Virus record (IMG/VR): IMGVR_UViG_3300029876_000390
Origin: a virus
Strand: one strand, 5' to 3'
Length of the DNA: 64,000 bases
In this document: piece after piece, positions 5,613 to 35,259 of the stretch
Position numbering within the stretch: the first letter of the stretch is position 1
Layout of the letters: each line of letters begins with the position of its first letter
The notes under the pieces: model-generated
What the model was told of the DNA's origin: nothing
The model's input: only the letters and a program-made list of their open reading frames with translations
Database searches by the model: none
Made by a program: the position numbers and the translations under genes

Positions 5613-5690
5613 GAGAAATACAGATAAGTAACCGTGCCGGGGGATGCCAGAGTGTCCTCCGGCTTTTTACATCGAATAGAGGTGAGATAT

Positions 5691-7688
5691 TTGAAAGAAA
5701 CGCTGATCGATATTGAGACCTACAGCGAGGTGGATATCGGAAAATGCGGCCTGTACCGTTATGCCACAGACCCCAGCTTTGAGATCCTGCTGGTAGCATG
5801 GGCAACCGATGAAGGGGACGGCTTTGGAGAGACCAGATGTGCAGACCTTGCATCGGGAGAACCTATTCCGGCAGAACTGCTGGAGGATTTCCAGTCCGGC
5901 AATGTGCGCCTGATCGCTCACAATGCTTCCTTTGAGCGGGTCTGTTTTTCCGTGCATCTGCAAAGACATCTGCCGGGACAGTATCTGAAACCCGGAGAGT
6001 TCCTGTCGCCAGACAACTGGATCTGCACGATGGTCATGGCGGCATCGTTGACTCTGCCAATGGCTCTAAAGGATGTTGGAGCCGTGCTGAAGACCAGCCA
6101 GCAGAAAGATAAGGAAGGCGAGCGGCTGATCAAGCTGTTTTCCATGCCCTGTAAGCCAACGAAAAGCAATGGAATGCGTACCCGGAATCTTCCGGAGCAT
6201 TACCCGGCAGACTGGGAGAAGTTTAAGTATTACTGCATTCAGGATGTCAACACCGAGGTGGACATTTATAAGAGGCTGAAGAAATTCCCGATGCCGGAGC
6301 AGGAGTGGAAGCATTACCGGGTCAATGAGCGTATCAATGACCGGGGCGTAAAGATCGACACGGAACTGGTGCAACAGGCCATTGCCTGTGATCTGATGCT
6401 CTCAGATGCTATGAGTAAGAAAGCCTACGAACTGACAGGGCTTGAGAATCCCAACTCTGTGTCACAGCTGAAGTCATGGCTGGATGAGCGTGGCATCCCG
6501 ATGGACACGCTTGGCAAAAAGGATGTAGCGCAGATGATCGAGGAACTGGACAAGAACGGAGTGGATGCCGAGGCAATGGACATGCTGAAGCTACGGCTTC
6601 AGATGGCGAAAAGTTCTGTGAAGAAATACCAGGCGGCAGAACGCTGTGTCTGCTCAGATGGCAGAGCCAGAGGGCTGTTCCAGTTCTATGGGGCCAGCCG
6701 CACAGGTCGGTATTCCGGCCGGAATATCCAGTTGCAGAATCTGCCGCAGAACCATATTTCCACGCTGGATGAGGCGAGGGAACTGGTGAAGCTGGGGTGC
6801 TTTGATATGGTCGAGACCATCTACGGCAACACCCCGGACGTGCTTTCACAGCTGATCCGAACCATGCTGATCCCAAAAGAAGGCTGTGAGTTCATCGTGG
6901 CTGACTTCTCTGCCATCGAAGCCCGTGTGCTTGCATGGGAAGCCGGGGAGGACTGGCGACTGGAAGCCTTTCTGGAAGGAAAGGACATCTACTGTGCCTC
7001 TGCCAGCCAGATGTTTCATGTGCCGGTGGTGAAGCACGGCATCAACGGGGAACTTCGGCAGAAAGGAAAGGTGGCAGAGCTGGCCTGTGGTTATGGTGGT
7101 TCTTCCGGTGCGCTCATCAGTATGGGTGCTCTGCAGATGGGCCTGAAAGAAGAGGAACTGCCGGAGATCATCGATTCCTGGCGGGAAGCCAATCCAAAGA
7201 TCGTCCAGTATTGGTGGGATGTGGAAAAGGCGGCAACGCAGGCGTTCAAGACCGGAAAGCGACAGGAGATCGGCAAGCTGGCGTTTGAGTTTTATTCCGG
7301 TACGCTTTGGATGCTGCTTCCTTCTGACAGAAAGCTGGCGTATCTGAAGCCGAGATTGCAGCCGAACCGCTTCGGTCGCATGAGCCTGACCTATGAAGGA
7401 GTGGGTCAGAACCACAAATGGGCCAGACAGGAAACCTACTCCGGCCGGCTGGTGGAGAATGCGACACAGGCGATCGCCCGTGACATTCTGGCAGAAGCAA
7501 TGGCCCGGATGGAAGGCTATGGTCTGAATATCGTAGGTCACGTTCACGATGAAGTCATCATCGAAGCACCCAAGGATCAGTACACAGTGGATGAGGTCTG
7601 CAAGCTGATGTCTGTTAACCCGGAGTGGTGCAAAGACCTTCCTCTGAATGCTGCCGGATATAAGGGCAGCTATTACTTTAAGGATTAA
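5691..7688 (+). CDS. Family-A DNA polymerase (Pol I-like) with 3'-5' exonuclease domain; likely TTG start.
   Basis: Exo I motif LIDIETYS; polymerase motifs YGASRTGRYSGRNIQLQNLPQ, RQKGKVAELACGYGG, HVHDEVIIE (motif C-like). Confidence 0.85.
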   Translation: MKETLIDIETYSEVDIGKCGLYRYATDPSFEILLVAWATDEGDGFGETRCADLASGEPIPAELLEDFQSGNVRLIAHNASFERVCFSVHLQRHLPGQYLKPGEFLSPDNWICTMVMAASLTLPMALKDVGAVLKTSQQKDKEGERLIKLFSMPCKPTKSNGMRTRNLPEHYPADWEKFKYYCIQDVNTEVDIYKRLKKFPMPEQEWKHYRVNERINDRGVKIDTELVQQAIACDLMLSDAMSKKAYELTGLENPNSVSQLKSWLDERGIPMDTLGKKDVAQMIEELDKNGVDAEAMDMLKLRLQMAKSSVKKYQAAERCVCSDGRARGLFQFYGASRTGRYSGRNIQLQNLPQNHISTLDEARELVKLGCFDMVETIYGNTPDVLSQLIRTMLIPKEGCEFIVADFSAIEARVLAWEAGEDWRLEAFLEGKDIYCASASQMFHVPVVKHGINGELRQKGKVAELACGYGGSSGALISMGALQMGLKEEELPEIIDSWREANPKIVQYWWDVEKAATQAFKTGKRQEIGKLAFEFYSGTLWMLLPSDRKLAYLKPRLQPNRFGRMSLTYEGVGQNHKWARQETYSGRLVENATQAIARDILAEAMARMEGYGLNIVGHVHDEVIIEAPKDQYTVDEVCKLMSVNPEWCKDLPLNAAGYKGSYYFKD

Positions 7689-7700
7689 AGGGGGAACGAG

Positions 7701-8039
7701 ATGCCTCACGTTCTAAAAATGAAAGACGGAAAACTCCTGACACCCTTTGGCATCCGGGATCTGCTGGATGCGGTGCAGGACTATGCCGGAGAGGAACTCC
7801 GCCGGGAGATCGAGGAATATATCGAAACTAATGTGCAGGATATCGATGATTACGAAAAAGAGTACGACCGCATGGAACAGGAGAATGAACGCCTGGCTGA
7901 CCATCAGCGGTCGGTCCTCTGTGACATCCGGGACGAGGTGGATGCTCTGGACACACTTCTGCAAGATACCCGGCTGAACCGTAGACGTATGCAGGGAGCC
8001 GTTCGGATCATCCGGCAGATGATCAACCGGGAATTATAA
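7701..8039 (+). CDS. Hypothetical protein.
   Basis: ORF immediately after polymerase with RBS GGGGGAACGAG before ATG 7701. Confidence 0.5.
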   Translation: MPHVLKMKDGKLLTPFGIRDLLDAVQDYAGEELRREIEEYIETNVQDIDDYEKEYDRMEQENERLADHQRSVLCDIRDEVDALDTLLQDTRLNRRRMQGAVRIIRQMINREL

Positions 8040-8138: not shown

Positions 8139-9206
8139 ATGAAAACAGGAAGAAATTTGCAGGAAGTCCTGGTCGAACTGAACCGTCAGAATCAGGCCAA
8201 GCAGGATTTTATCAGTCCGGCGCAGGGAATGCGCCTCCGGGAGGATGGACAGACTTTTGAGATCAACCATCTTACGACCAGCCAGCAGGAAGTGTTTGGT
8301 ACGACCTCGCTGTTCCATCGTCAGGTGGCATCAGCACTGGGTATCCCGGCCAAATACTATGATCTCATGCAGAAAGAAAAGCCGGAACTTCTTGCCGAGA
8401 ACGTGAACAGCTGGTTTTCGGACAAGCCCAGTTCTTACATGGTCCGTTCGATGGATTACGGTGCCGGACAGGTGGCCCGTGCGCTGCTGTCGGAACGCTA
8501 TCGCCGTATCGACAACATGGAGATTGCCACATCCGTCCTGCCGCTGTTTGCAGGCAACGATCAGTACGAGGTCATGTCCTGCGAGGTGACGGAGAACCGT
8601 CTGTATCTCAAGGTGGTCAATCACCGTCTGGAGATGGAAGTCCGCAAGGGCGATATCGTCCAGGCCGGTGTGATGATCTCCAACTCCGAGGTCGGTCTGG
8701 GAGCTGTGTCCATTCAGCCGCTGGTATACCGTCTGGTCTGCACCAACGGCATGGTGGTCAATGACATGGGCGAACGCCGTCATCATGTGGGCCGGCAGGC
8801 AAAAGCAGTGGAGGACAGCTTCGCACTGTATTCGGATGAGACGATGGAAGCAGAGGACAAGGCATTCCTGCTGAAACTCCGCGATACCACGATGGCCGCC
8901 ATTGATGAGAGTCGTTTCTCTCAGGTGGTCAGCCGCCTGCAGGAATCTATGGCAGTACCAATCACCGGCAAGGTGCAGGATGTGGTGCAGCTGACTGCCC
9001 AGAGTTATGGCATCAATGCCGAGGAGCAGGAAGGTATCCTCAAGTACCTCATTGAAGGCGGCGATCTTTCTCTGTACGGTCTGTCCAATGCGGTGACCCG
9101 CGCATCGCAGGACGTTGTTTCCTATGACCGCGCCACCACACTGGAAGGCATCGGCTGGCAGGTTGCCACGATGGAGCCGCAGCAGTGGAAGCAGATCAAT
9201 CAGTGA
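8139..9206 (+). CDS. Phage/plasmid-like protein, possibly DUF932-family (family assignment tentative).
   Basis: 355-aa ORF with RBS GAGAGGAAAATTGCT before ATG 8139; length and position in the replication module resemble DUF932 proteins, but no motif could be verified by eye. Confidence 0.5.
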   Translation: MKTGRNLQEVLVELNRQNQAKQDFISPAQGMRLREDGQTFEINHLTTSQQEVFGTTSLFHRQVASALGIPAKYYDLMQKEKPELLAENVNSWFSDKPSSYMVRSMDYGAGQVARALLSERYRRIDNMEIATSVLPLFAGNDQYEVMSCEVTENRLYLKVVNHRLEMEVRKGDIVQAGVMISNSEVGLGAVSIQPLVYRLVCTNGMVVNDMGERRHHVGRQAKAVEDSFALYSDETMEAEDKAFLLKLRDTTMAAIDESRFSQVVSRLQESMAVPITGKVQDVVQLTAQSYGINAEEQEGILKYLIEGGDLSLYGLSNAVTRASQDVVSYDRATTLEGIGWQVATMEPQQWKQINQ

Positions 9207-9215
9207 GGTGACGGT

Positions 9216-9452
9216 ATGGAAGATGTCATTCACTGGATTACAGAACACAAAGAGGAAAGCTCCCCGAACAGGAAAGTCAGTCACAGCCACCCGGACCCAA
9301 CTGCCAATGAAGCCATCGGCAATGTGGTTCGGGAAGAACGCAGGAAGAAGCAACGCCAAAGGAAACACCCTAAAAGGGAACACCAGGAAAAGAAACGCCC
9401 ACGCATCGGTGTCTGGCGGGCAGAGGAGGCGAAGCCGGATGAGGGAGAATGA
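9216..9452 (+). CDS. Small highly basic hypothetical protein.
   Basis: 78-aa ORF starting 10 nt after the upstream stop, RBS GAGGTGACGGT before ATG; Lys/Arg-rich C-terminus. Confidence 0.35.
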   Translation: MEDVIHWITEHKEESSPNRKVSHSHPDPTANEAIGNVVREERRKKQRQRKHPKREHQEKKRPRIGVWRAEEAKPDEGE

Positions 9453-9858
9453 AGTCGAAAAGCAGTTTGTGGAAGCAGTCAGGGCCGCCGGTGGGCAGGC
9501 CCTTAAATTCACCAGTCAGAGCATGAACGGTGTGCCGGATCGACTGGTTTTGCTGCTCGGCGGCAAGTGTGCTTTTGTGGAACTGAAAGCTCCCGGCAAG
9601 CAGATGCGTATCCTTCAGAGAAAACGCAGACTGCAGCTGGAGGCACTGGGCTTTCCGGTATTCTGCGTAGACCGCCCGGAACAGATCCAGCCTGCTATCC
9701 ATGCGTTGATTTGCTGGAAACCGGGCGAGCCTATCCCACAGGGGATCGGAGCAAAGATCCCGGAGCTGCCGGCGGTTACATTGCCGCAGGGAAATACACA
9801 AAGCGAGAAGCCGGAAACACGGGCACAGGATGTCGGGGAGGAGGTGATGCCCAAATGA
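9439..9858 (+). CDS. VRR-NUC domain nuclease.
   Basis: MRENEVEKQFVEAVRAAGGQALKFTSQSMNGVPDRLVLLLGGKCAFVELKAPGKQMRILQRKRRLQLEALGFPVFCV matches the VRR-NUC (PD-(D/E)XK) pattern D...ELK..G..L...Q. Confidence 0.75.
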   Translation: MRENEVEKQFVEAVRAAGGQALKFTSQSMNGVPDRLVLLLGGKCAFVELKAPGKQMRILQRKRRLQLEALGFPVFCVDRPEQIQPAIHALICWKPGEPIPQGIGAKIPELPAVTLPQGNTQSEKPETRAQDVGEEVMPK

Positions 9859-11237
9859 AGTTCATTCCTCATGATTATCAGAGCTACTGTACGGAGTATA
9901 TCAAAACACATCCGGTCGCAGCCCTTTTTCTGGATATGGGCTTGGGTTAAGGAAAGACCGTTATCACATTGACGGCCATCAAAGACCTTATGCTGGAGAC
10001 CTTTGAGGTCAGTAAGGCTCTCATCATCGCGCCGCTGCGTGTGGCCCGTGATACATGGCCGGCAGAGATCGAAAAGTGGGATCATCTGCAAGGTCTGGAT
10101 ATTTCCGTCATCGTAGGTGATACAAAGACACGCATTGCGGCACTCCACCACCCGGCGATGATCTATGTCGTCAACCGGGAAAATATCAAATGGCTGGTGG
10201 AGTATTATGAGAAAAACGGAATGCGCTGGGATTTTGGCATGGTCGTGATTGATGAGCTGTCATCGTTCAAGAACTACCAGTCCCAGCGTTTTAAATTCCT
10301 GCGGAAAGTCCGCCCGTATGTGAAACGATGGGTCGGATTGACCGGCACCCCTTCTTCCAATGGTCTCATGGATCTTTGGGCGGAGATCGGGATTCTGGAT
10401 GGCGGGGAGCGGCTTGGCAAATTCATCGGTCGGTACCGGGAAGCTTATTTCAAAGCCTCTTCCATGAATCCTTCCACGGGTGTTGTGTTCCAATACAAGC
10501 CCAGAGAAGGAGCAGAGGAGCTGATCTACCAGCGGATCTCGGATATCACGATTTCTATGAAAGCACTGGATTACCTTCATATGCCGGACTGTATTCCAAG
10601 CCGGTACGAGGTGGAGATGAACACGCAGGAACGGGAACTCTACGATATGCTTCGGAAAGATCTGCTGATCCCGCTGAAAGACGGTGACATAGATGCTGCC
10701 AATGCTGCATCACTGACAGGGAAACTGTTGCAGATGAGCAATGGCGCTGTCTATGACGAGAATGGCAAAGCACGAGTCATCCATGACCACAAGCTGGAAG
10801 CTCTCGAAGACCTGATCGAAGCGGCCAACGGACAGCCAGTGCTAGTGGCCTACTGGTTCAAGCATGACCGCCAGCGCATTATGGAGCATTTGGCAAAGCA
10901 AAAGATTCCGGTACGGGATATCAAGAGCAGTACCGACATCAAAGACTGGAATGCCGGGAACATTCCAGTTGCTCTGATCCATCCTGCATCGGCCGGACAT
11001 GGCCTGAACATCCAGCAGGGTGGACACATCCTCATCTGGTTCGGGCTGACATGGAGTCTGGAACTGTACCAGCAGACTAATGCCAGACTCTGGCGGCAGG
11101 GGCAGACGGATGTGGTCACTATCCACCATATCATCACCAAGGACACGGTGGACGAGGATGTCATGGCGGCTTTGGAGCAGAAGGACATGACACAGGAAAA
11201 ACTGATCTCAGCGGTCAAGGCACAGCTGGGGAGATAG
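9855..11237 (+). pseudogene. SNF2-family helicase gene interrupted by an in-frame TAA (9948-9950) inside Walker A. It reads LDMGLG-stop-GKTVITL, consistent with a 6-nt TTAAGG insertion into an expected DMGLGKT motif.
   Basis: ORF 9567-9950 (in-frame ATG 9855, MKFIPHDYQ...LDMGLG) and ORF 9969-11237 are in the same frame with a single stop between them. Downstream are SNF2 motifs (DELSSFKN, GLTGTPSSNGLMDLW, helicase C-terminal QTNARLWRQGQ). Combined length 461 codons, typical for this helicase. Confidence 0.7.
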
Positions 11238-11245
11238 GAGAGAAT

Positions 11246-11944
11246 ATGAAAAAGCATCTGTTTTTGAATGCAGAGGACCGCCGTCCGGCAGAGGAGAGCG
11301 ATTATCGTTATAAAAAATCCAAGCCGGTAACGGCAATGAAAGCAAAAAGAGACGAGGAGGGATTCTTCATCCCCTGGGCAATGTTCCGGCCGATTGGCGA
11401 AAAGGGACTCCTTTGTGAGCTCTTTGGCACGAGTCCGATCCGCAGGGCAGCAGACCTGCGGCTGAACCGGGATCTTCTCATGAAGGAAGCCTATGAGCAT
11501 GAAGTGGAACTTCTGATGTGCCATATCCGGGCAAGTGAGCTCTGGATGCAGCAGGAATTCTGTAAGGAAGAACAGGCTATGGAACTGTATCAGAAATCCA
11601 AGATCCAGAATATGCCCAAGCTCACCCCGGACGGAAAACGAAAGGTCCTGCTGGATGCACTCACATGGAAATACGACTGTGTCCAGCAGTACAAAAAGAT
11701 CTGTTTTCAGTTTGCAGAGGCGGTCATTGCAAGGGAAAAGAGCCAGAATCTGGAGAATGCGAACTGGGAGCACTTTATCGAGCAGTTCATCAAGAAAGCA
11801 AATGAACTGCCGGAAGCAAACCGCCGTTTGCTGGATCTTTTATATGAGACTGCGTGGCACACGATCTATGTTTTTAAGTACGGAATTGCTCCGGAGAAGG
11901 TGCCGGCACCCTGGTATGACAGGATGGGAGGCGTTGAAAAATGA
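11246..11944 (+). CDS. Hypothetical protein.
   Basis: 232-aa ORF, RBS GGAGAGAAT before ATG 11246. Confidence 0.5.
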   Translation: MKKHLFLNAEDRRPAEESDYRYKKSKPVTAMKAKRDEEGFFIPWAMFRPIGEKGLLCELFGTSPIRRAADLRLNRDLLMKEAYEHEVELLMCHIRASELWMQQEFCKEEQAMELYQKSKIQNMPKLTPDGKRKVLLDALTWKYDCVQQYKKICFQFAEAVIAREKSQNLENANWEHFIEQFIKKANELPEANRRLLDLLYETAWHTIYVFKYGIAPEKVPAPWYDRMGGVEK

Positions 11945-33622: not shown

Positions 33623-33646
33623 TATGAAGATTTGGAGGAAAAAGCT

Positions 33647-33862
33647 ATGAAGTATCTGATGAGTGCAGAATGGTGGAAGGCAGCCGGCATCCGCGCTGCA
33701 AAGACGATGTTCCAGACCGGCGCGGCTCTGGTCGTGACACAGATGCCCGGCGGCACTGTGGACTGGACGGCGGTCGGCAGTGCAGTGATCGTGGCGGGTG
33801 TTGCGTCCCTCGGTACCAGCCTTGCCGGTCTGCCGGAACTGGAGAAAGGGGATAAGGCCTAA
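33647..33862 (+). CDS. Small hydrophobic / membrane protein (holin-like or packaging-associated).
   Basis: RBS GGAGG 8 nt before ATG 33647; 71 aa with hydrophobic segments AALVVTQMPGG and VIVAGVASLGTSLAGL. Confidence 0.45.
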   Translation: MKYLMSAEWWKAAGIRAAKTMFQTGAALVVTQMPGGTVDWTAVGSAVIVAGVASLGTSLAGLPELEKGDKA

Positions 33863-35259
33863 TGGGATTCTGGGAATGGATGGGGTTTGAGAACCCAAGG
33901 GATTCTCCCAAAACAGAACAGCCAAAAGAAGGTCTGCCGCAGGTCACGGATAACGTCCGAGATTCCGGGCAGACCTTTGTGTTTGGCCGCTCCAATGCCG
34001 GGGAGCAGGTGGATGAGAAAGCCGCCATGCAGATCCCGACTGTGTATGCCTGTGTCCGTCTGCTGGCGGAGTCCATTGCGGCACTGCCGCTGCATCTGTA
34101 CCGGGTGACAGACGATAACGGCAACAAGGAAAAGGCGCGGGATCATCCGTTGTACAAGATTCTGTATCGCCAGCCCAACCCAGAGATGACATCCTTTGTC
34201 TTTTGGGAAACGCTGATGACTCACTTGCTTCTCTGGGGCAACGCCTACGCACAGATCGTCCGGGATGGCAAGAACACGGTGCTGGGGCTGTATCCGCTTT
34301 TGCCGGAAAATGTCGAAGTCGACCGGGATGAGAGCGGTGAGCTCTATTATATCTACCACGCATACACGGATGAAGTTCCGGGAGAGCAGAATAAAGACCT
34401 CTACTTCCGCCGGGACGAGATCTTCCATGTGCCGGGTCTGGGTTTCAATGGTCTGATCGGTTTTTCACCGATCGCCATGATGAAGAACAGCCTCGGCACT
34501 TCCATTGCGGTGGACAAGTATGGCTCGTCCTTCTTCAAGAATGGTGCACAGCCCAGTGGTGTACTGGAACACCCCGGTGTTTTAAAAGACCCGAATCGTG
34601 TCCGGGATAACTGGGAGGCAGCATATGGCGGTGCAGCCAATGCCCATCGCGTGGCTGTGCTGGAAGAGGGCATGGCCTACAAACCGATCTCTCTGCCACC
34701 GGAGGACAGTCAGTTCCTTGAAACGAAACAGTTTTCTGTGACGGAGATCTGCCGTATTTTCCGTGTGCCTCCGCATCTGGTAGCTGATCTGTCCAGAGCT
34801 ACCTTTTCTAACATTGAATACCAGTCGCTGAACTTTGTGATGCACTCCCTGACCCCGTGGCTTGTCCGCATCGAGCAGGGCATCATCAAGGATCTGCTGC
34901 TGGAAGAGGAGCAGGATACCTACTTCCCAAAATTCAATGTGGACGGTCTGCTCCGTGGCGACTACCAGAGCCGGATGAACGGTTACGCGACCGGCATCAG
35001 CAACGGCTTCCTCTCTCCGAATGATGTGCATCGTCTGGAGAACATGGATCTCATCCCGGCAGAGGAGGGCGGAGATGACTACTATCTGAACGGCGGCTAT
35101 GTGAAGCTGAAAGATGCAGGGGTGGCACAGCAAAATAAAGCTGCCGCAGTCCAGCAGAATCAGCCGAAACAGACACAGCCCGAAACGGAAGAAGAACCTG
35201 ACAGCGATAACCGGCTGAGTGAGAGTAAGCCAAAGAAACGAGAAAGGAGAACCCGATGA
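33862..35259 (+). CDS. Portal protein, HK97 family.
   Basis: Position after terL and before the prohead protease; length 465 aa; C-terminal acidic/basic tail; conserved portal core segments such as GNAYAQIVRDG and LPPEDSQFLETKQF. Confidence 0.8.
   Translation: MGFWEWMGFENPRDSPKTEQPKEGLPQVTDNVRDSGQTFVFGRSNAGEQVDEKAAMQIPTVYACVRLLAESIAALPLHLYRVTDDNGNKEKARDHPLYKILYRQPNPEMTSFVFWETLMTHLLLWGNAYAQIVRDGKNTVLGLYPLLPENVEVDRDESGELYYIYHAYTDEVPGEQNKDLYFRRDEIFHVPGLGFNGLIGFSPIAMMKNSLGTSIAVDKYGSSFFKNGAQPSGVLEHPGVLKDPNRVRDNWEAAYGGAANAHRVAVLEEGMAYKPISLPPEDSQFLETKQFSVTEICRIFRVPPHLVADLSRATFSNIEYQSLNFVMHSLTPWLVRIEQGIIKDLLLEEEQDTYFPKFNVDGLLRGDYQSRMNGYATGISNGFLSPNDVHRLENMDLIPAEEGGDDYYLNGGYVKLKDAGVAQQNKAAAVQQNQPKQTQPETEEEPDSDNRLSESKPKKRERRTR

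Follow-up and report, generated by a model that had tools for sequence, protein, structure and literature searches.

A putative stop-hop in the P-loop of an SNF2-type helicase gene from phages of Bacillota

The hexanucleotide TAAGGA at positions 9948-9953 of the window (here meaning the whole 64,000-nt stretch of viral DNA, IMG/VR record IMGVR_UViG_3300029876_000390) probably serves as a programmed short-range translational bypass site, or "stop-hop", in the gene for an SNF2-type helicase. By the mechanism proposed, ribosomes would start at the ATG at 9855, read 31 codons, and pause when peptidyl-tRNA-Gly occupies GGT (9945-9947) in the P site and the A site presents the slowly decoded TAA. 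For a fraction of these ribosomes, pairing of the peptidyl-tRNA would then be lost, the mRNA would slide by 6 nt, and the tRNA would re-pair with GGA (9951-9953), with decoding restarting at AAG 9954 and nine nucleotides yielding a single glycine. The predicted product is an SNF2-type helicase of the usual kind, its motif I having the canonical sequence DMGLGKT and the expected tryptic junction peptide being THPVAALFLDMGLGK, while ribosomes terminating at the TAA would release a 31-residue peptide. Inserts of this type are conserved and under selection and, as read from the alleles compared, a hop over the insert by peptidyl-tRNA-Gly is the sole route that would give DMGLGKT in every insert class. 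The hop itself, together with its efficiency and purpose, is inferred.

The interrupted helicase gene

The helicase gene belongs to a replication module with the following features:

5634-7688, plus strand: family A DNA polymerase, replication module
7701-8039, plus strand: small ORF, replication module
8139-9206, plus strand: DUF932 protein, replication module
9439..9858, plus strand: endonuclease gene, PHROG 93, VRR-NUC-like by eye
9840..9844, plus strand: Shine-Dalgarno sequence GGAGG, 10 nt before the helicase ATG and inside the 3' end of the upstream endonuclease gene
9855..9947, plus strand: helicase ORF part 1, 31 codons from the ATG at 9855-9857, MKFIPHDYQSYCTEYIKTHPVAALFLDMGLG
9939..9944, plus strand: nucleotide-constrained Gly-1/Leu stretch ahead of the take-off codon, from codon third-base statistics of interrupted alleles
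9945..9947, plus strand: proposed take-off codon GGT (Gly31), from the GGY bias in interrupted alleles
9948..9950, plus strand: TAA stop, conserved as a stop across carriers; proposed A-site codon at take-off, bypassed rather than decoded
9951..9953, plus strand: proposed landing codon GGA, from comparison of the triplet before the resume codon across insert classes
9954..11237, plus strand: helicase ORF part 2, 427 codons from the Lys codon AAG of GKT to the TAG at 11235-11237

The helicase start overlaps the endonuclease stop (ATGA), and the two genes are therefore probably translationally coupled. A Pfam search with the endonuclease (9439..9858) returned no match at E ≤ 1e-3. Part 1 of the helicase encodes the Q-motif (HDYQ), strand beta-1, and the first half of motif I, with codons 27-31 (GAT ATG GGC TTG GGT; 9933-9947) reading D M G L G. 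After the TAA, the same frame reads GGA AAG ACC (G K T) and stays open until the TAG at 11235-11237. Part 2 contains the SNF2-related and Helicase_C domains. In the window, the 12-mer GGTTAAGGAAAG is found once, where 0.01 occurrences would be expected.

Deletion of six nucleotides (TTAAGG at 9946-9951 or, equivalently, TAAGGA at 9948-9953) gives back DMGLGKT. The resulting product matches Pfam SNF2-rel_dom (PF00176, E = 9e-19) and Helicase_C (PF00271, E = 1.5e-5), aligns end to end with PHROG 62, "DNA helicase" (residues 1-457, E = 1e-172), and is ungapped over motif I relative to the solved SNF2/Rad54 helicase 1z63 (LADDMGLGKT). It is this hop product alone that has the features of an SNF2-related (SF2) helicase; as written in the DNA, motif I is interrupted. 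The original prediction had placed an in-frame TAA within Walker A of a replication-module helicase of the SNF2 type, and had noted that taking out an apparent 6-nt insert brings back DMGLGKT; the searches, the alignment, and inspection of the site agree with it on each of these points.

Distribution of the insert

A scan of IMG/VR for D-M-G-L-G-NNN-G-K-T returned 103 loci (TGA 54, TAA 47, and two with a sense codon). Both sense hits lie in unrelated proteins, leaving 101 contigs with a helicase context and no sense codon among them. The 47 loci that fit the degenerate D-M-G-L-G-TAA-G-K-T pattern are independent viral contigs, so that the feature goes well beyond chance and belongs to more than this one assembly. 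Many of these TAA contigs are close relatives of the window. Among the first 104 unique metagenome hits, 70 carry D-M-G-L-G-stop-G-K-T (TGA 36, TAA 33, TAG 1), and the single sense-codon helicase in that sample (L323, DMGLGLGKT) sits on a contig of 0.99x coverage with a premature stop. Stop-to-sense changes therefore amount to 0/101 in IMG/VR and 1/71 in the metagenome sample.

In the loci selected by pattern, GGN AAR AC is imposed by the search itself; an unbiased sample of 134 non-redundant homologues was chosen by the C-terminal part only. This sample contains 114 intact genes, with DMGLGKT uninterrupted, and 20 interrupted ones (about 15%) bearing inserts of 4, 5, 6, or 7 nt, and annotated phages contribute 9-nt and TAGGT variants. 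The insert classes, which are lineage-specific and heritable, include TGAC, TAGC, TAGGA, TAGGT, TGAGC, TGAGT, TGAGAGC, TGAGGGC, and TGAAAAGGC. A stop (TGA, TAA, or TAG) directly follows the Gly codon in every class and in 103/103 non-redundant interrupted alleles. Past the insert, AAR-ACN (Lys-Thr) always comes next, at the head of an intact ORF of about 420 codons. A relative 92% identical to the window (L188) illustrates the interchange of TGA and TAA between close relatives, and in another locus (L110) a TAGGA insert follows the first Gly codon of G-L-G, where a +5 hop would likewise give DMGLGKT. The INPHARED records in which the gene is listed as two "hypothetical proteins" are mostly intact, the second feature being an overlapping upstream gene.

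The site is also present in isolate genomes (Ruminococcus sp. 5_1_39BFAA, Dorea acetigenes, and Streptococcus porci DSM 23759) and in deposited phage records, and the phages that carry it span those of Clostridia, Streptococcus, and Erysipelothrix. Lysogens with interrupted alleles include Dorea acetigenes Sanger_03 and Erysipelothrix rhusiopathiae ZJ. A sequencing or assembly artefact, which the original prediction had listed as one possibility, would have to recur in these genomes and records as well as in 47 + 54 viral contigs from many samples, and is vanishingly improbable. The footprint-like insertion it had also suggested does not fit inserts of one kind that recur at one codon across divergent phages, with the stop essentially never replaced by a sense codon.

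Selection on both parts of the gene

Taken at face value, a stop at codon 32 within Walker A kills the protein, and the original prediction called the gene inactivated, naming a null mutation that marks a defective prophage among several possible causes. A helicase pseudogene that decays with its prophage, repeated through clonal descent, would also suit the kinship of many TAA contigs with the window, and some copies may indeed be decaying, such as L189, which has an extra TAG in the Q-motif codon, and L108, which is without the 5' part. Yet the same-codon inserts occur in many divergent phages and prophages, and several lines of evidence make an inactivating lesion very unlikely. Carriers are 46-100% identical in protein, with third codon positions randomised and synonymous sites saturated, and the downstream ORF is intact in 84/84 loci with enough sequence (410-440 aa, and one of 470). 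Downstream dN/dS is 0.05-0.09 in the out-of-frame classes and about 0.06 in a 5-nt class; four TAGGA genes have a pS of 0.40-0.51 and a pN of 0.03-0.05, and the TGAC and TGAGC pairs have a pS of about 0.77 and a pN of 0.12-0.23. Upstream, pN is likewise well below pS over the N-terminal 26 codons of interrupted alleles, a sign of purifying selection. The ribosome-binding site and start are conserved, with the ggaggtgatgcc-NN-ATG arrangement kept in all interrupted alleles examined and a constant 31 codons from the start through the take-off codon. The stop itself is never lost through further decay, and the interrupted alleles are scattered over the helicase tree, with at least 30 state changes in the C-terminal tree and at least 11 in the N-terminal tree. 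Finally, the helicase is among the nine marker genes of Ca. Heliusvirales, and the polymerase, terminase, portal, and protease of the window's prophage are intact.

A further reading has two separate polypeptides, a 31-residue peptide and an independently started C-terminal protein, acting jointly or with the C-terminal part alone serving without ATPase activity. Gene callers annotate some relatives in this manner (31-aa and 404-aa ORFs in PV036450, and false upstream starts in PV036457 and Javan422), and UGAGG and UAAGG are weakly Shine-Dalgarno-like. Against this, no start codon (ATG, GTG, or TTG) was found between the stop and GGN-AAR-ACN, the first in-frame start in the window being the TTG at 9969, past GKT, and the 4-nt inserts TGAC and TAGC have no Shine-Dalgarno-like sequence. 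A downstream start would free the Lys-Thr codons from selection, but they are invariant after the insert, the independent evidence for this being limited to the 20 interrupted alleles of the unbiased sample. We also know of no precedent for a P-loop split between two chains at G|GKT, and this arrangement is highly improbable.

Codon constraints at the site

The proposed take-off codon is GGY in 102/103 non-redundant interrupted alleles, versus 67% of intact homologues; in the metagenome sample, it is GGT in 46 cases, GGC in 22, and GGG in two. Immediately ahead of the resume codon, TAGGA, TAGGT, and the classes of 6, 7, and 9 nt have a GGN triplet, and the others have AGC, AGT, or GAC. In every class, the landing triplet can form at least two of three pairs with the GCC anticodon. 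Speaking against a hop, the commonest landing codon, GGA, is non-cognate for the tRNA-Gly with that anticodon, and AGC, AGT, and GAC are near-cognate. The use of TAG agrees with tRNA-Gly landing: 6-nt inserts hardly ever begin with it, which would make an out-of-frame GGG landing site, but TAGGA, TAGGT, and TAGC do, and there the G of TAG opens the landing triplet. In the 7-nt class TGAGGGC, a point against the hop, an out-of-frame GGG lies one nucleotide ahead of the GGC that would be productive. The Gly before Lys is present in all 114-115 intact homologues, although the parsing pattern itself required GGN there.

Further upstream, 91% of 56 interrupted sequences (<85% identical) have a C as the last base of the Gly-1 codon, with other third positions random, and the Leu codon is UUR or CUC/CUG in interrupted alleles but mostly CUU in intact ones. 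The preference for GGC at Gly-1 and the avoidance of CUU at Leu are constraints at the nucleotide level.

Read-through, frameshifting, and changes of code as rival readings

Conventional recoding might operate class by class, with read-through of the 6- and 9-nt inserts, a prfB-like +1 shift on those of 4 and 7 nt, and a -1 shift on those of 5 nt, lengthening the P-loop, or the stretch before it, by one or two residues. If the 6-nt class of the window is taken alone, read-through is compatible with the sequence: the product would be DMGL-GxGKT, with GxGKT retained, and the expected peptide for the window allele is THPVAALFLDMGLG[Q/K/Y/W]GK. A +1 shift on TGAGGGC would give G-E-G-K-T and a -1 shift on TAGGA or TAGGT would give G-L-G-K-T; the L323 helicase has DMGLGLGKT with a sense codon, and the GGY-UGA-C site of the TGAC class resembles the CUU-UGA-C shift site of prfB. 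By the same logic, however, Ser or Asp would replace the invariant Gly before Lys in TGAC, TAGC, TGAGC, TGAGT, and TGAGAGC, classes that persist under purifying selection, and the 9-nt insert would yield xKGKT. Stop-to-sense mutations would be expected to be common if a protein two residues longer were functional, yet they are rare (see above), and the L323 exception is the low-coverage contig with a premature stop. TGA and TAA, which would be misread as different amino acids, swap freely, and UAA, the stop at the window's site, is the hardest of the three to read through. Because the 4-, 5-, and 7-nt inserts are out of frame and nevertheless conserved and selected, read-through is excluded as a common mechanism, and the class-by-class scheme as a whole is unlikely.

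The original prediction had judged recoding improbable. It is nevertheless the option that the evidence favours, in the form of a ribosomal hop over the insert and not of codon reassignment or read-through. Its further statement that TAA is not reassigned was well founded, as other large genes in the window read normally with the standard code. Long ORFs, among them those for the polymerase, terminase, and portal, run without interruption, the window's genes showed no other credible in-frame stop, and all three stops are used at the site across relatives. A suppressor tRNA or code change was rejected, as the window lacks tRNA genes and its other genes are free of internal stops. A second "GGA TAA GGC" at 33853 was discarded as an off-frame coincidence where a small ORF meets the portal gene. 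Recoding of TAG to Gln in L189, which has a TAG at the Q-motif codon, was considered and not adopted, the ORF-length comparison being ambiguous.

Possible removal or use of the insert at the nucleic acid level

The insert might be removed without the ribosome, by RNA excision or editing, or might serve chiefly at the DNA level, as a target for a nuclease or for recombination or as protection from one, with decoding secondary. The insert of T4 gene 60 protects against the MobA nuclease, and the constraints on Gly-1 and Leu noted above act at the nucleotide level. In L108, the TAA is precisely where homology to the window sets in, the upstream sequence being unrelated, Thoeris-like cargo, and alleles with 93-96% identical C-termini differ in a 5' segment ending 20-45 nt past the site, much like co-conversion tracts. 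This reading is nonetheless distinctly unlikely. L108 is a single contig, and no flanking gene, an endonuclease in particular, is consistently linked to the interrupted state: neither a linked homing endonuclease nor an interrupted-specific gene was found within ±3.5 kb, where the top ORF family occurs in at most 34/92 interrupted loci and gene enrichments merely mirror clades. To our knowledge, 4-9 nt is shorter than any known intron, and no RNA structure that would support self-excision was found around the site. A DNA-level role would, moreover, still require protein synthesis across the insert. The genes upstream in L108 encode an M78 peptidase, a PIN protein, and Thoeris-like ThsB/ThsA, and a search for the junction returned a single contig.

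Efficiency and purpose of the proposed hop

Folding around the site revealed no conserved RNA structure or pseudoknot that might act as a stimulator (RNAalifold gave an empty consensus for 44 diverse sequences of the 6-nt class, and the mean local-fold z was -0.09). The N-terminal residues are mostly MKF[IMV]PH in interrupted alleles and MKY[NKSE]PH in intact ones, yet those of L115 (interrupted) equal those of L195 (intact). Efficient bypass of T4 gene 60 needs both RNA-structure and nascent-peptide signals; since no RNA structure and no distinguishing nascent-peptide signal were found for the helicase, the efficiency of the stop-hop may be low. Its likeliest purpose would be to limit active helicase to a small, possibly condition-dependent, fraction of the translation of the coupled replication operon. 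A rival purpose, by analogy with the MobA protection afforded by the gene 60 insert, would be the breaking of a conserved DNA target, for which no supporting evidence was found in this analysis.

Comparison with known bypass and recoding systems

Natural bypassing is known from very few systems, namely the T4 gene 60 family, Magnusiomyces mitochondria, and phage Hau3. Synthetic stop-hops proceed with an efficiency of about 1% or less. The +5 and +6 "forward hops" engineered in E. coli by Weiss, Dunn, Atkins, and Gesteland in 1987, as cited in PMC5009743, work when matched codons flank the stop, and natural occurrences were not known as of the 2016 review by Atkins et al. (PMC5009743). The helicase site resembles these constructs in that matched or near-matched codons flank a stop, 9 nt (8 nt for +5) would yield one amino acid, and a slow stop in the A site would serve as trigger, with no need for an elaborate RNA signal. 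Unlike the engineered reporters, it is natural and conserved across Bacillota phages, lies in an essential catalytic motif, and would use tRNA-Gly over distances of +4 to +9.

T4 gene 60, in which the gap is 50 nt and the third bases of the take-off and landing codons may differ, shares with the helicase site, as proposed here, a Gly take-off codon, an immediate stop, and landing on a Gly codon, and both are phage DNA-metabolism genes (topoisomerase subunit versus helicase). In contrast, the helicase gap is 4-9 nt, and no take-off stem-loop or other conserved structure, clear nascent-peptide signal, or linked homing endonuclease was found. In gene 60 homologues, both codons are always read by the same tRNA, whereas GGY to GGA is the commonest pair at the helicase site.

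Expression of prfB (RF2) depends on a programmed +1 frameshift at CUU-UGA-C, with an overlapping codon and a Shine-Dalgarno sequence needed three nucleotides upstream. As in prfB, an early A-site stop would provide the pause, the TGAC class has the form GGY-UGA-C, and output would follow termination efficiency, making the site a possible regulatory sensor. Unlike prfB, the helicase genes mostly have in-frame sites (+6), and their GKT glycine would be lost in a +1 shift. The "byp" elements of Magnusiomyces mitochondria are mobile, 27-55 nt long, and scattered over many genes. Like them, the helicase inserts are short, numerous, independent, and located in coding sequence, the "byp" elements being skipped between matching triplets with an undecodable codon after each; unlike them, the helicase inserts occur at one position in one gene family, plus the neighbouring Gly codon in L110.

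In the terminase gene of Streptomyces phage Hau3, 10-nt inserts start with the rare codon UUA; after UUA had been changed to UAA, bypassing of one insert was confirmed in E. coli by mass spectrometry (PMC10732093). Both cases would involve short-range bypass in a phage gene, with an insert that opens with a slow codon, a proposed regulatory role, and insert-free homologues. The Hau3 site differs in its hungry sense codon, dependence on bldA tRNA availability, and predicted flanking structures with a Shine-Dalgarno sequence, whereas the helicase has a true stop, shorter inserts, and no structure that could be found.

Phage lineage and significance

The nine markers of Ca. Heliusvirales are TerL, portal, MCP, protease, DNA polymerase I, helicase, nuclease, and two unknowns. 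The window encodes Pol A, endonuclease, helicase, TerL, portal, and a ClpP-like protease in the order expected for this lineage, its replication module matches the replication-related markers, and its nearest annotated records are Heliusvirales. The helicase, in which the site sits, is thus a marker for a lineage that ranks among the most widespread phages of the human gut.

More likely than not, the helicase sites would represent a first natural stop-hop family, with a minimal, structure-free signal (GGY, stop, 1-6 nt, and an AAR resume codon) in the P-loop of a core helicase from phages of several Bacillota classes. Hops of +4 to +9 with near-cognate landing would be a normal, selected mode of expression in gut Firmicutes, and may act as a termination-efficiency sensor that gates replication. 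No published description of the site was found in the literature on stop-hops, bypassing, SNF2/P-loop helicases, or Heliusvirales, a search in which subscription journals were thinly covered and a prior description is possible. If confirmed, this would be the first natural stop-hop found in reports, filling the gap named by the 2016 review (PMC5009743). The more than 100 natural variants (4-9 nt, three stops, and several landing triplets) constitute a ready mutational series for working out take-off and landing rules. If output follows release-factor activity or ribosome traffic, phage DNA replication could be coupled to host physiology.

There is also a practical side to the site. Gene callers split or mis-start the helicase, as in the PV036450, PV036457, and Javan422 records above, and pipelines would call such prophages defective, but an in-frame stop in a catalytic motif is no proof of a dead gene.

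The Interrupted Helicase Gene

The helicase gene at 9855-11237 (plus strand) is divided by a stop codon within motif I (Walker A), and its parts are as follows:

9855, plus strand: ATG start codon, 10 nt 3' of GGAGG and overlapping the stop of the upstream endonuclease gene (ATGA)
31 codons from ATG 9855, plus strand: part 1, reading MKFIPHDYQSYCTEYIKTHPVAALFLDMGLG
9948-9950, plus strand: in-frame stop TAA, directly after the 31 codons
GGA 9951 onward, to the stop TAG at 11235-11237, plus strand: part 2, in the same frame and beginning GKTVITLTAIKD

Part 2 comprises 428 codons from GGA 9951, or 427 from the AAG (Lys) at 9954, the proposed resume codon. The window sequence confirms the anatomy first proposed, with the stop inside Walker A and DMGLGKT regained by removal of 6 nt. 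Restored in this way, the protein belongs to the SNF2-related helicases (Pfam SNF2-rel_dom and Helicase_C) and matches PHROG 62 end to end (E = 1e-172), and its motif I aligns without gaps to that of the solved SNF2/Rad54 helicase 1z63. The surrounding replication module consists of a family A DNA polymerase, a DUF932 protein, the endonuclease and the helicase, and the terminase, portal and protease genes of the prophage are all intact. Immediately 3' of the helicase lies an ORF (11246-11944; 232 aa) with no Pfam or PHROG match, homologues of which occur at 24 of 92 interrupted loci, all within the window-like clade, and at none of 114 intact loci. A candidate second recoding site, GGA TAA GGC at 33853-33855 between long open frames, was rejected as an off-frame coincidence; it falls where a 76-aa membrane-like ORF (33632-33862) stops and the portal gene (33862-35259) begins.

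Distribution Among Viruses and Metagenomes

A degenerate D-M-G-L-G-TAA-G-K-T pattern was found in 47 IMG/VR contigs. With the middle codon unconstrained, 103 loci were recovered (TGA 54, TAA 47, TAG 0, sense 2); both sense-codon loci encode unrelated proteins, and all 101 stop-bearing loci encode the same helicase, in the context xYQxYxIxxI...LFL. The C-terminal proteins of carriers range down to 46% identity with that of the window, and third codon positions near the site hold essentially no information among 56 sequences less than 85% identical around it. In metagenomes, the first 120 matches listed yielded 104 unique sequences, with TGA in 36, TAA in 33 and TAG in one; the other 34, bearing sense codons, belong to other protein families (among them a recurring DMGFGFGKT motif and a DMGFGSGKTYDLEVW motif), one helicase excepted. 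In no other helicase homologue found does a sense codon occupy the place of the insert; this gene, on a human-gut contig (OQIR01009581, coverage 0.99), reads DMGLG-L-GKT (codon CTT), and its ORF ends prematurely about 30 codons further on.

Wherever the sequence extends far enough (84 loci), the downstream ORF is intact, at 410-440 codons in all but one locus, where it has 470. The original prediction of a null mutation marking a defective prophage is not upheld by these 101 diverse helicase loci sharing the stop and their intact downstream ORFs, and the insert is very probably not damage but a functional feature kept by selection.

Insert Classes and Their Common Rule

A sample blind to the site was assembled using an alignment of 11 diverse C-terminal parts, beginning 12 residues after GKT, with which 80 viral and 80 genomic loci were fetched, giving 134 non-redundant genes. 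Motif I is uninterrupted (D/E-M/C-G-L-G-K-T/S) in 114 of these; the other 20 are interrupted at exactly the same place.

Inserts by length, sequence and source
4 nt: TGAC, TAGC; unbiased sample
5 nt: TAGGA, TGAGC, TGAGT; unbiased sample
5 nt: TAGGT; PV036457
6 nt: TRAGGN; unbiased sample
7 nt: TGAGGGC, TGAGAGC; unbiased sample
9 nt: TGAAAAGGC; PV036450

TAGGA is also present in Erysipelothrix phage phi1605 (MF172979), and TGAGGGC in Streptococcus phage Javan422, a prophage of S. porci DSM 23759. Carriers include isolate genomes (Ruminococcus sp. 5_1_39BFAA, Dorea acetigenes and S. porci) and MAGs of Faecalibacterium (96% identical to the window), Oscillospiraceae and Lachnospiraceae. In one further MAG (SFRL01000051.1), the hop site is still TGA, and a TAG replaces the invariant Q-motif Gln codon (HDYQ) about 75 nt 5' of it (MKFVPHDY*SY); either a further lesion or an error may account for this, or the phage may be one that recodes TAG as Gln.

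Every insert is headed by a stop codon directly after a Gly codon, the proposed take-off codon (GGT 9945-9947, Gly31, in the window), and is directly followed by AAR ACN (Lys-Thr), which heads the long ORF. Of 103 non-redundant interrupted genes, 102 have GGT or GGC as take-off codon, against only 67% GGY in intact genes. The proposed landing triplet before AAR is GGN, AGC, AGT or GAC, so that two or more of its three bases can always pair with tRNA-Gly of anticodon GCC. Shifting peptidyl-tRNA-Gly from take-off codon to landing triplet yields DMGLGKT in all 15 insert sequences (9 insert types). The same shift, by +5, also does so at the site of IMGVR_UViG_3300029092_000252 just upstream of locus 3001, where TAGGA follows the first, not the second, Gly codon of G-L-G (GAC ATG GGT TAGGA CTC GGA AAA ACG); the device seems to have arisen independently here. 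TAG is nearly missing from the 6-nt class, where UAG-GGN would create an out-of-frame GGG. It does serve as the stop of TAGGA, TAGGT and TAGC, its G there forming the first base of the landing triplet. Both patterns fit landing by pairing.

Selection and Proposed Mechanism

In the four TAGGA genes, whose parts lie in different frames, the downstream ORF shows synonymous differences of 40-51% and non-synonymous differences of 3-5% (dN/dS about 0.06). Likewise, pS and pN are 0.77 and 0.12 for the TGAC pair and 0.76 and 0.23 for the TGAGC genes; for the TGAGGGC genes, pN is 0.26 with synonymous sites saturated. In the 26 codons 5' of DMGLG, pN is well under pS. The RBS and start codon are conserved at a fixed distance, with exactly 31 codons from the start to the end of the take-off codon, and no start codon lies between the stop and GKT. 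One functional protein must therefore be made from both parts, which requires recoding at the insert. Recoding, which the original prediction held to be unlikely, is the option favored by purifying selection on both parts, including the out-of-frame classes.

The best-supported mechanism, and a reasonably probable one, is a short programmed bypass, or hop. The ribosome would pause with peptidyl-tRNA-Gly in the P site and the stop in the A site, the tRNA would un-pair, the mRNA would slip 4-9 nt, the tRNA would pair again, and decoding would start again at Lys. The combination of read-through for in-frame classes with single-nucleotide frameshifting for the others fits less well, as read-through is usable only by the 6- and 9-nt classes, and frameshifting would place Ser or Asp instead of the invariant Gly before the P-loop Lys in TGAC, TAGC, TGAGC, TGAGT and TGAGAGC. 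A hop has precedents: the synthetic +5 and +6 "stop-hops" (Weiss et al. 1987, via PMC5009743) share the site's geometry, T4 gene 60 shares the Gly take-off and adjacent stop, and the 10-nt bypass of the phage Hau3 terminase (PMC10732093) is the nearest natural analogue.

No conserved RNA structure was detectable at the hop site. Locally, interrupted alleles differ from intact ones at synonymous positions only, in the Gly-1 and Leu codons of G-L-G and in the take-off codon, and these differences persist between nearest neighbours. At Gly-1 and Leu (window 9939-9944 and equivalents, loci L001-L266), just 5' of the take-off codon, the synonymous constraint is strong. Gly-1 is GGC in 91-95% of interrupted alleles versus about 9% of intact ones. 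Interrupted alleles spell Leu as UUR, CUC or CUG and rarely as CUU (3 of 103), the codon that most intact ones use (64%). Other third positions near the take-off codon are random in interrupted alleles. The Gly-1/Leu bias may possibly act via the E-site codon or the mRNA just 5' of the E site.

Recombination at the Site

On the C-terminal protein tree, interrupted and intact genes intermingle, so that at least 30 state changes are needed, whereas a tree of the N-terminal 29 residues requires only 11, relative to about 66 with shuffled labels. In three pairs of loci (L115/L195, L145/L223 and L064/L127), C-termini are 93-96% identical and the 5' ~100 nt are very different, with differences extending 20-45 nt past the site, where the switch point falls. 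Such contrasts indicate frequent recombination within the helicase gene. By the two trees and these 5' switches, the site therefore moves with its own 5' segment and is reshuffled by recombination. To turn TRAGGN into any of the non-6-nt inserts, one or two insertions or deletions of a single base within the G run suffice, changes that would be lethal frameshifts were the gene ordinary. No flanking gene or endonuclease specifically linked to interrupted alleles was found.

In IMGVR_UViG_3300001528_001086 (locus 2940-2965), the C-terminal helicase protein is 96% identical to that of the window (DNA alignment about 80%), and DNA homology starts exactly at the hop-site TAA. The AT-rich DNA on its 5' side is unrelated and carries genes for an M78 peptidase, a PIN protein and Thoeris-like ThsB (TIR) and ThsA (Macro), along with a perfect TTGACA-17-TATAAT promoter. 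This junction could be a recombination breakpoint or an assembly chimera.

Purpose and Novelty

Given no stimulators, hop efficiency may be low; of all translation of a tightly coupled operon, no more than a small fraction would then yield active helicase. We infer that this cap is the site's purpose; the fraction might depend on termination efficiency. Alternatively, the insert may serve to disrupt a putative conserved DNA target, much as that of gene 60 does with the target of MobA, a purpose hinted at only indirectly by the mosaic tracts in helicase 5' ends and by the breakpoint exactly at TAA.

In-frame stop-hopping has been demonstrated in synthetic constructs, and in nature "no occurrences are known" (Atkins et al. 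2016; PMC5009743). No prior description of the helicase site was found in the full-text literature searched, whose coverage leaves out most subscription journals; that literature includes the two papers defining Ca. Heliusviridae/Heliusvirales, which take this helicase as a marker gene. Public phage records mis-annotate the interrupted gene, as a 31-aa "hypothetical protein" plus a 5'-truncated ORF in PV036450 (35704-37065), and as a CDS from a false start in the downstream frame in PV036457 (34855-36225) and MK448934 (8240-9535).
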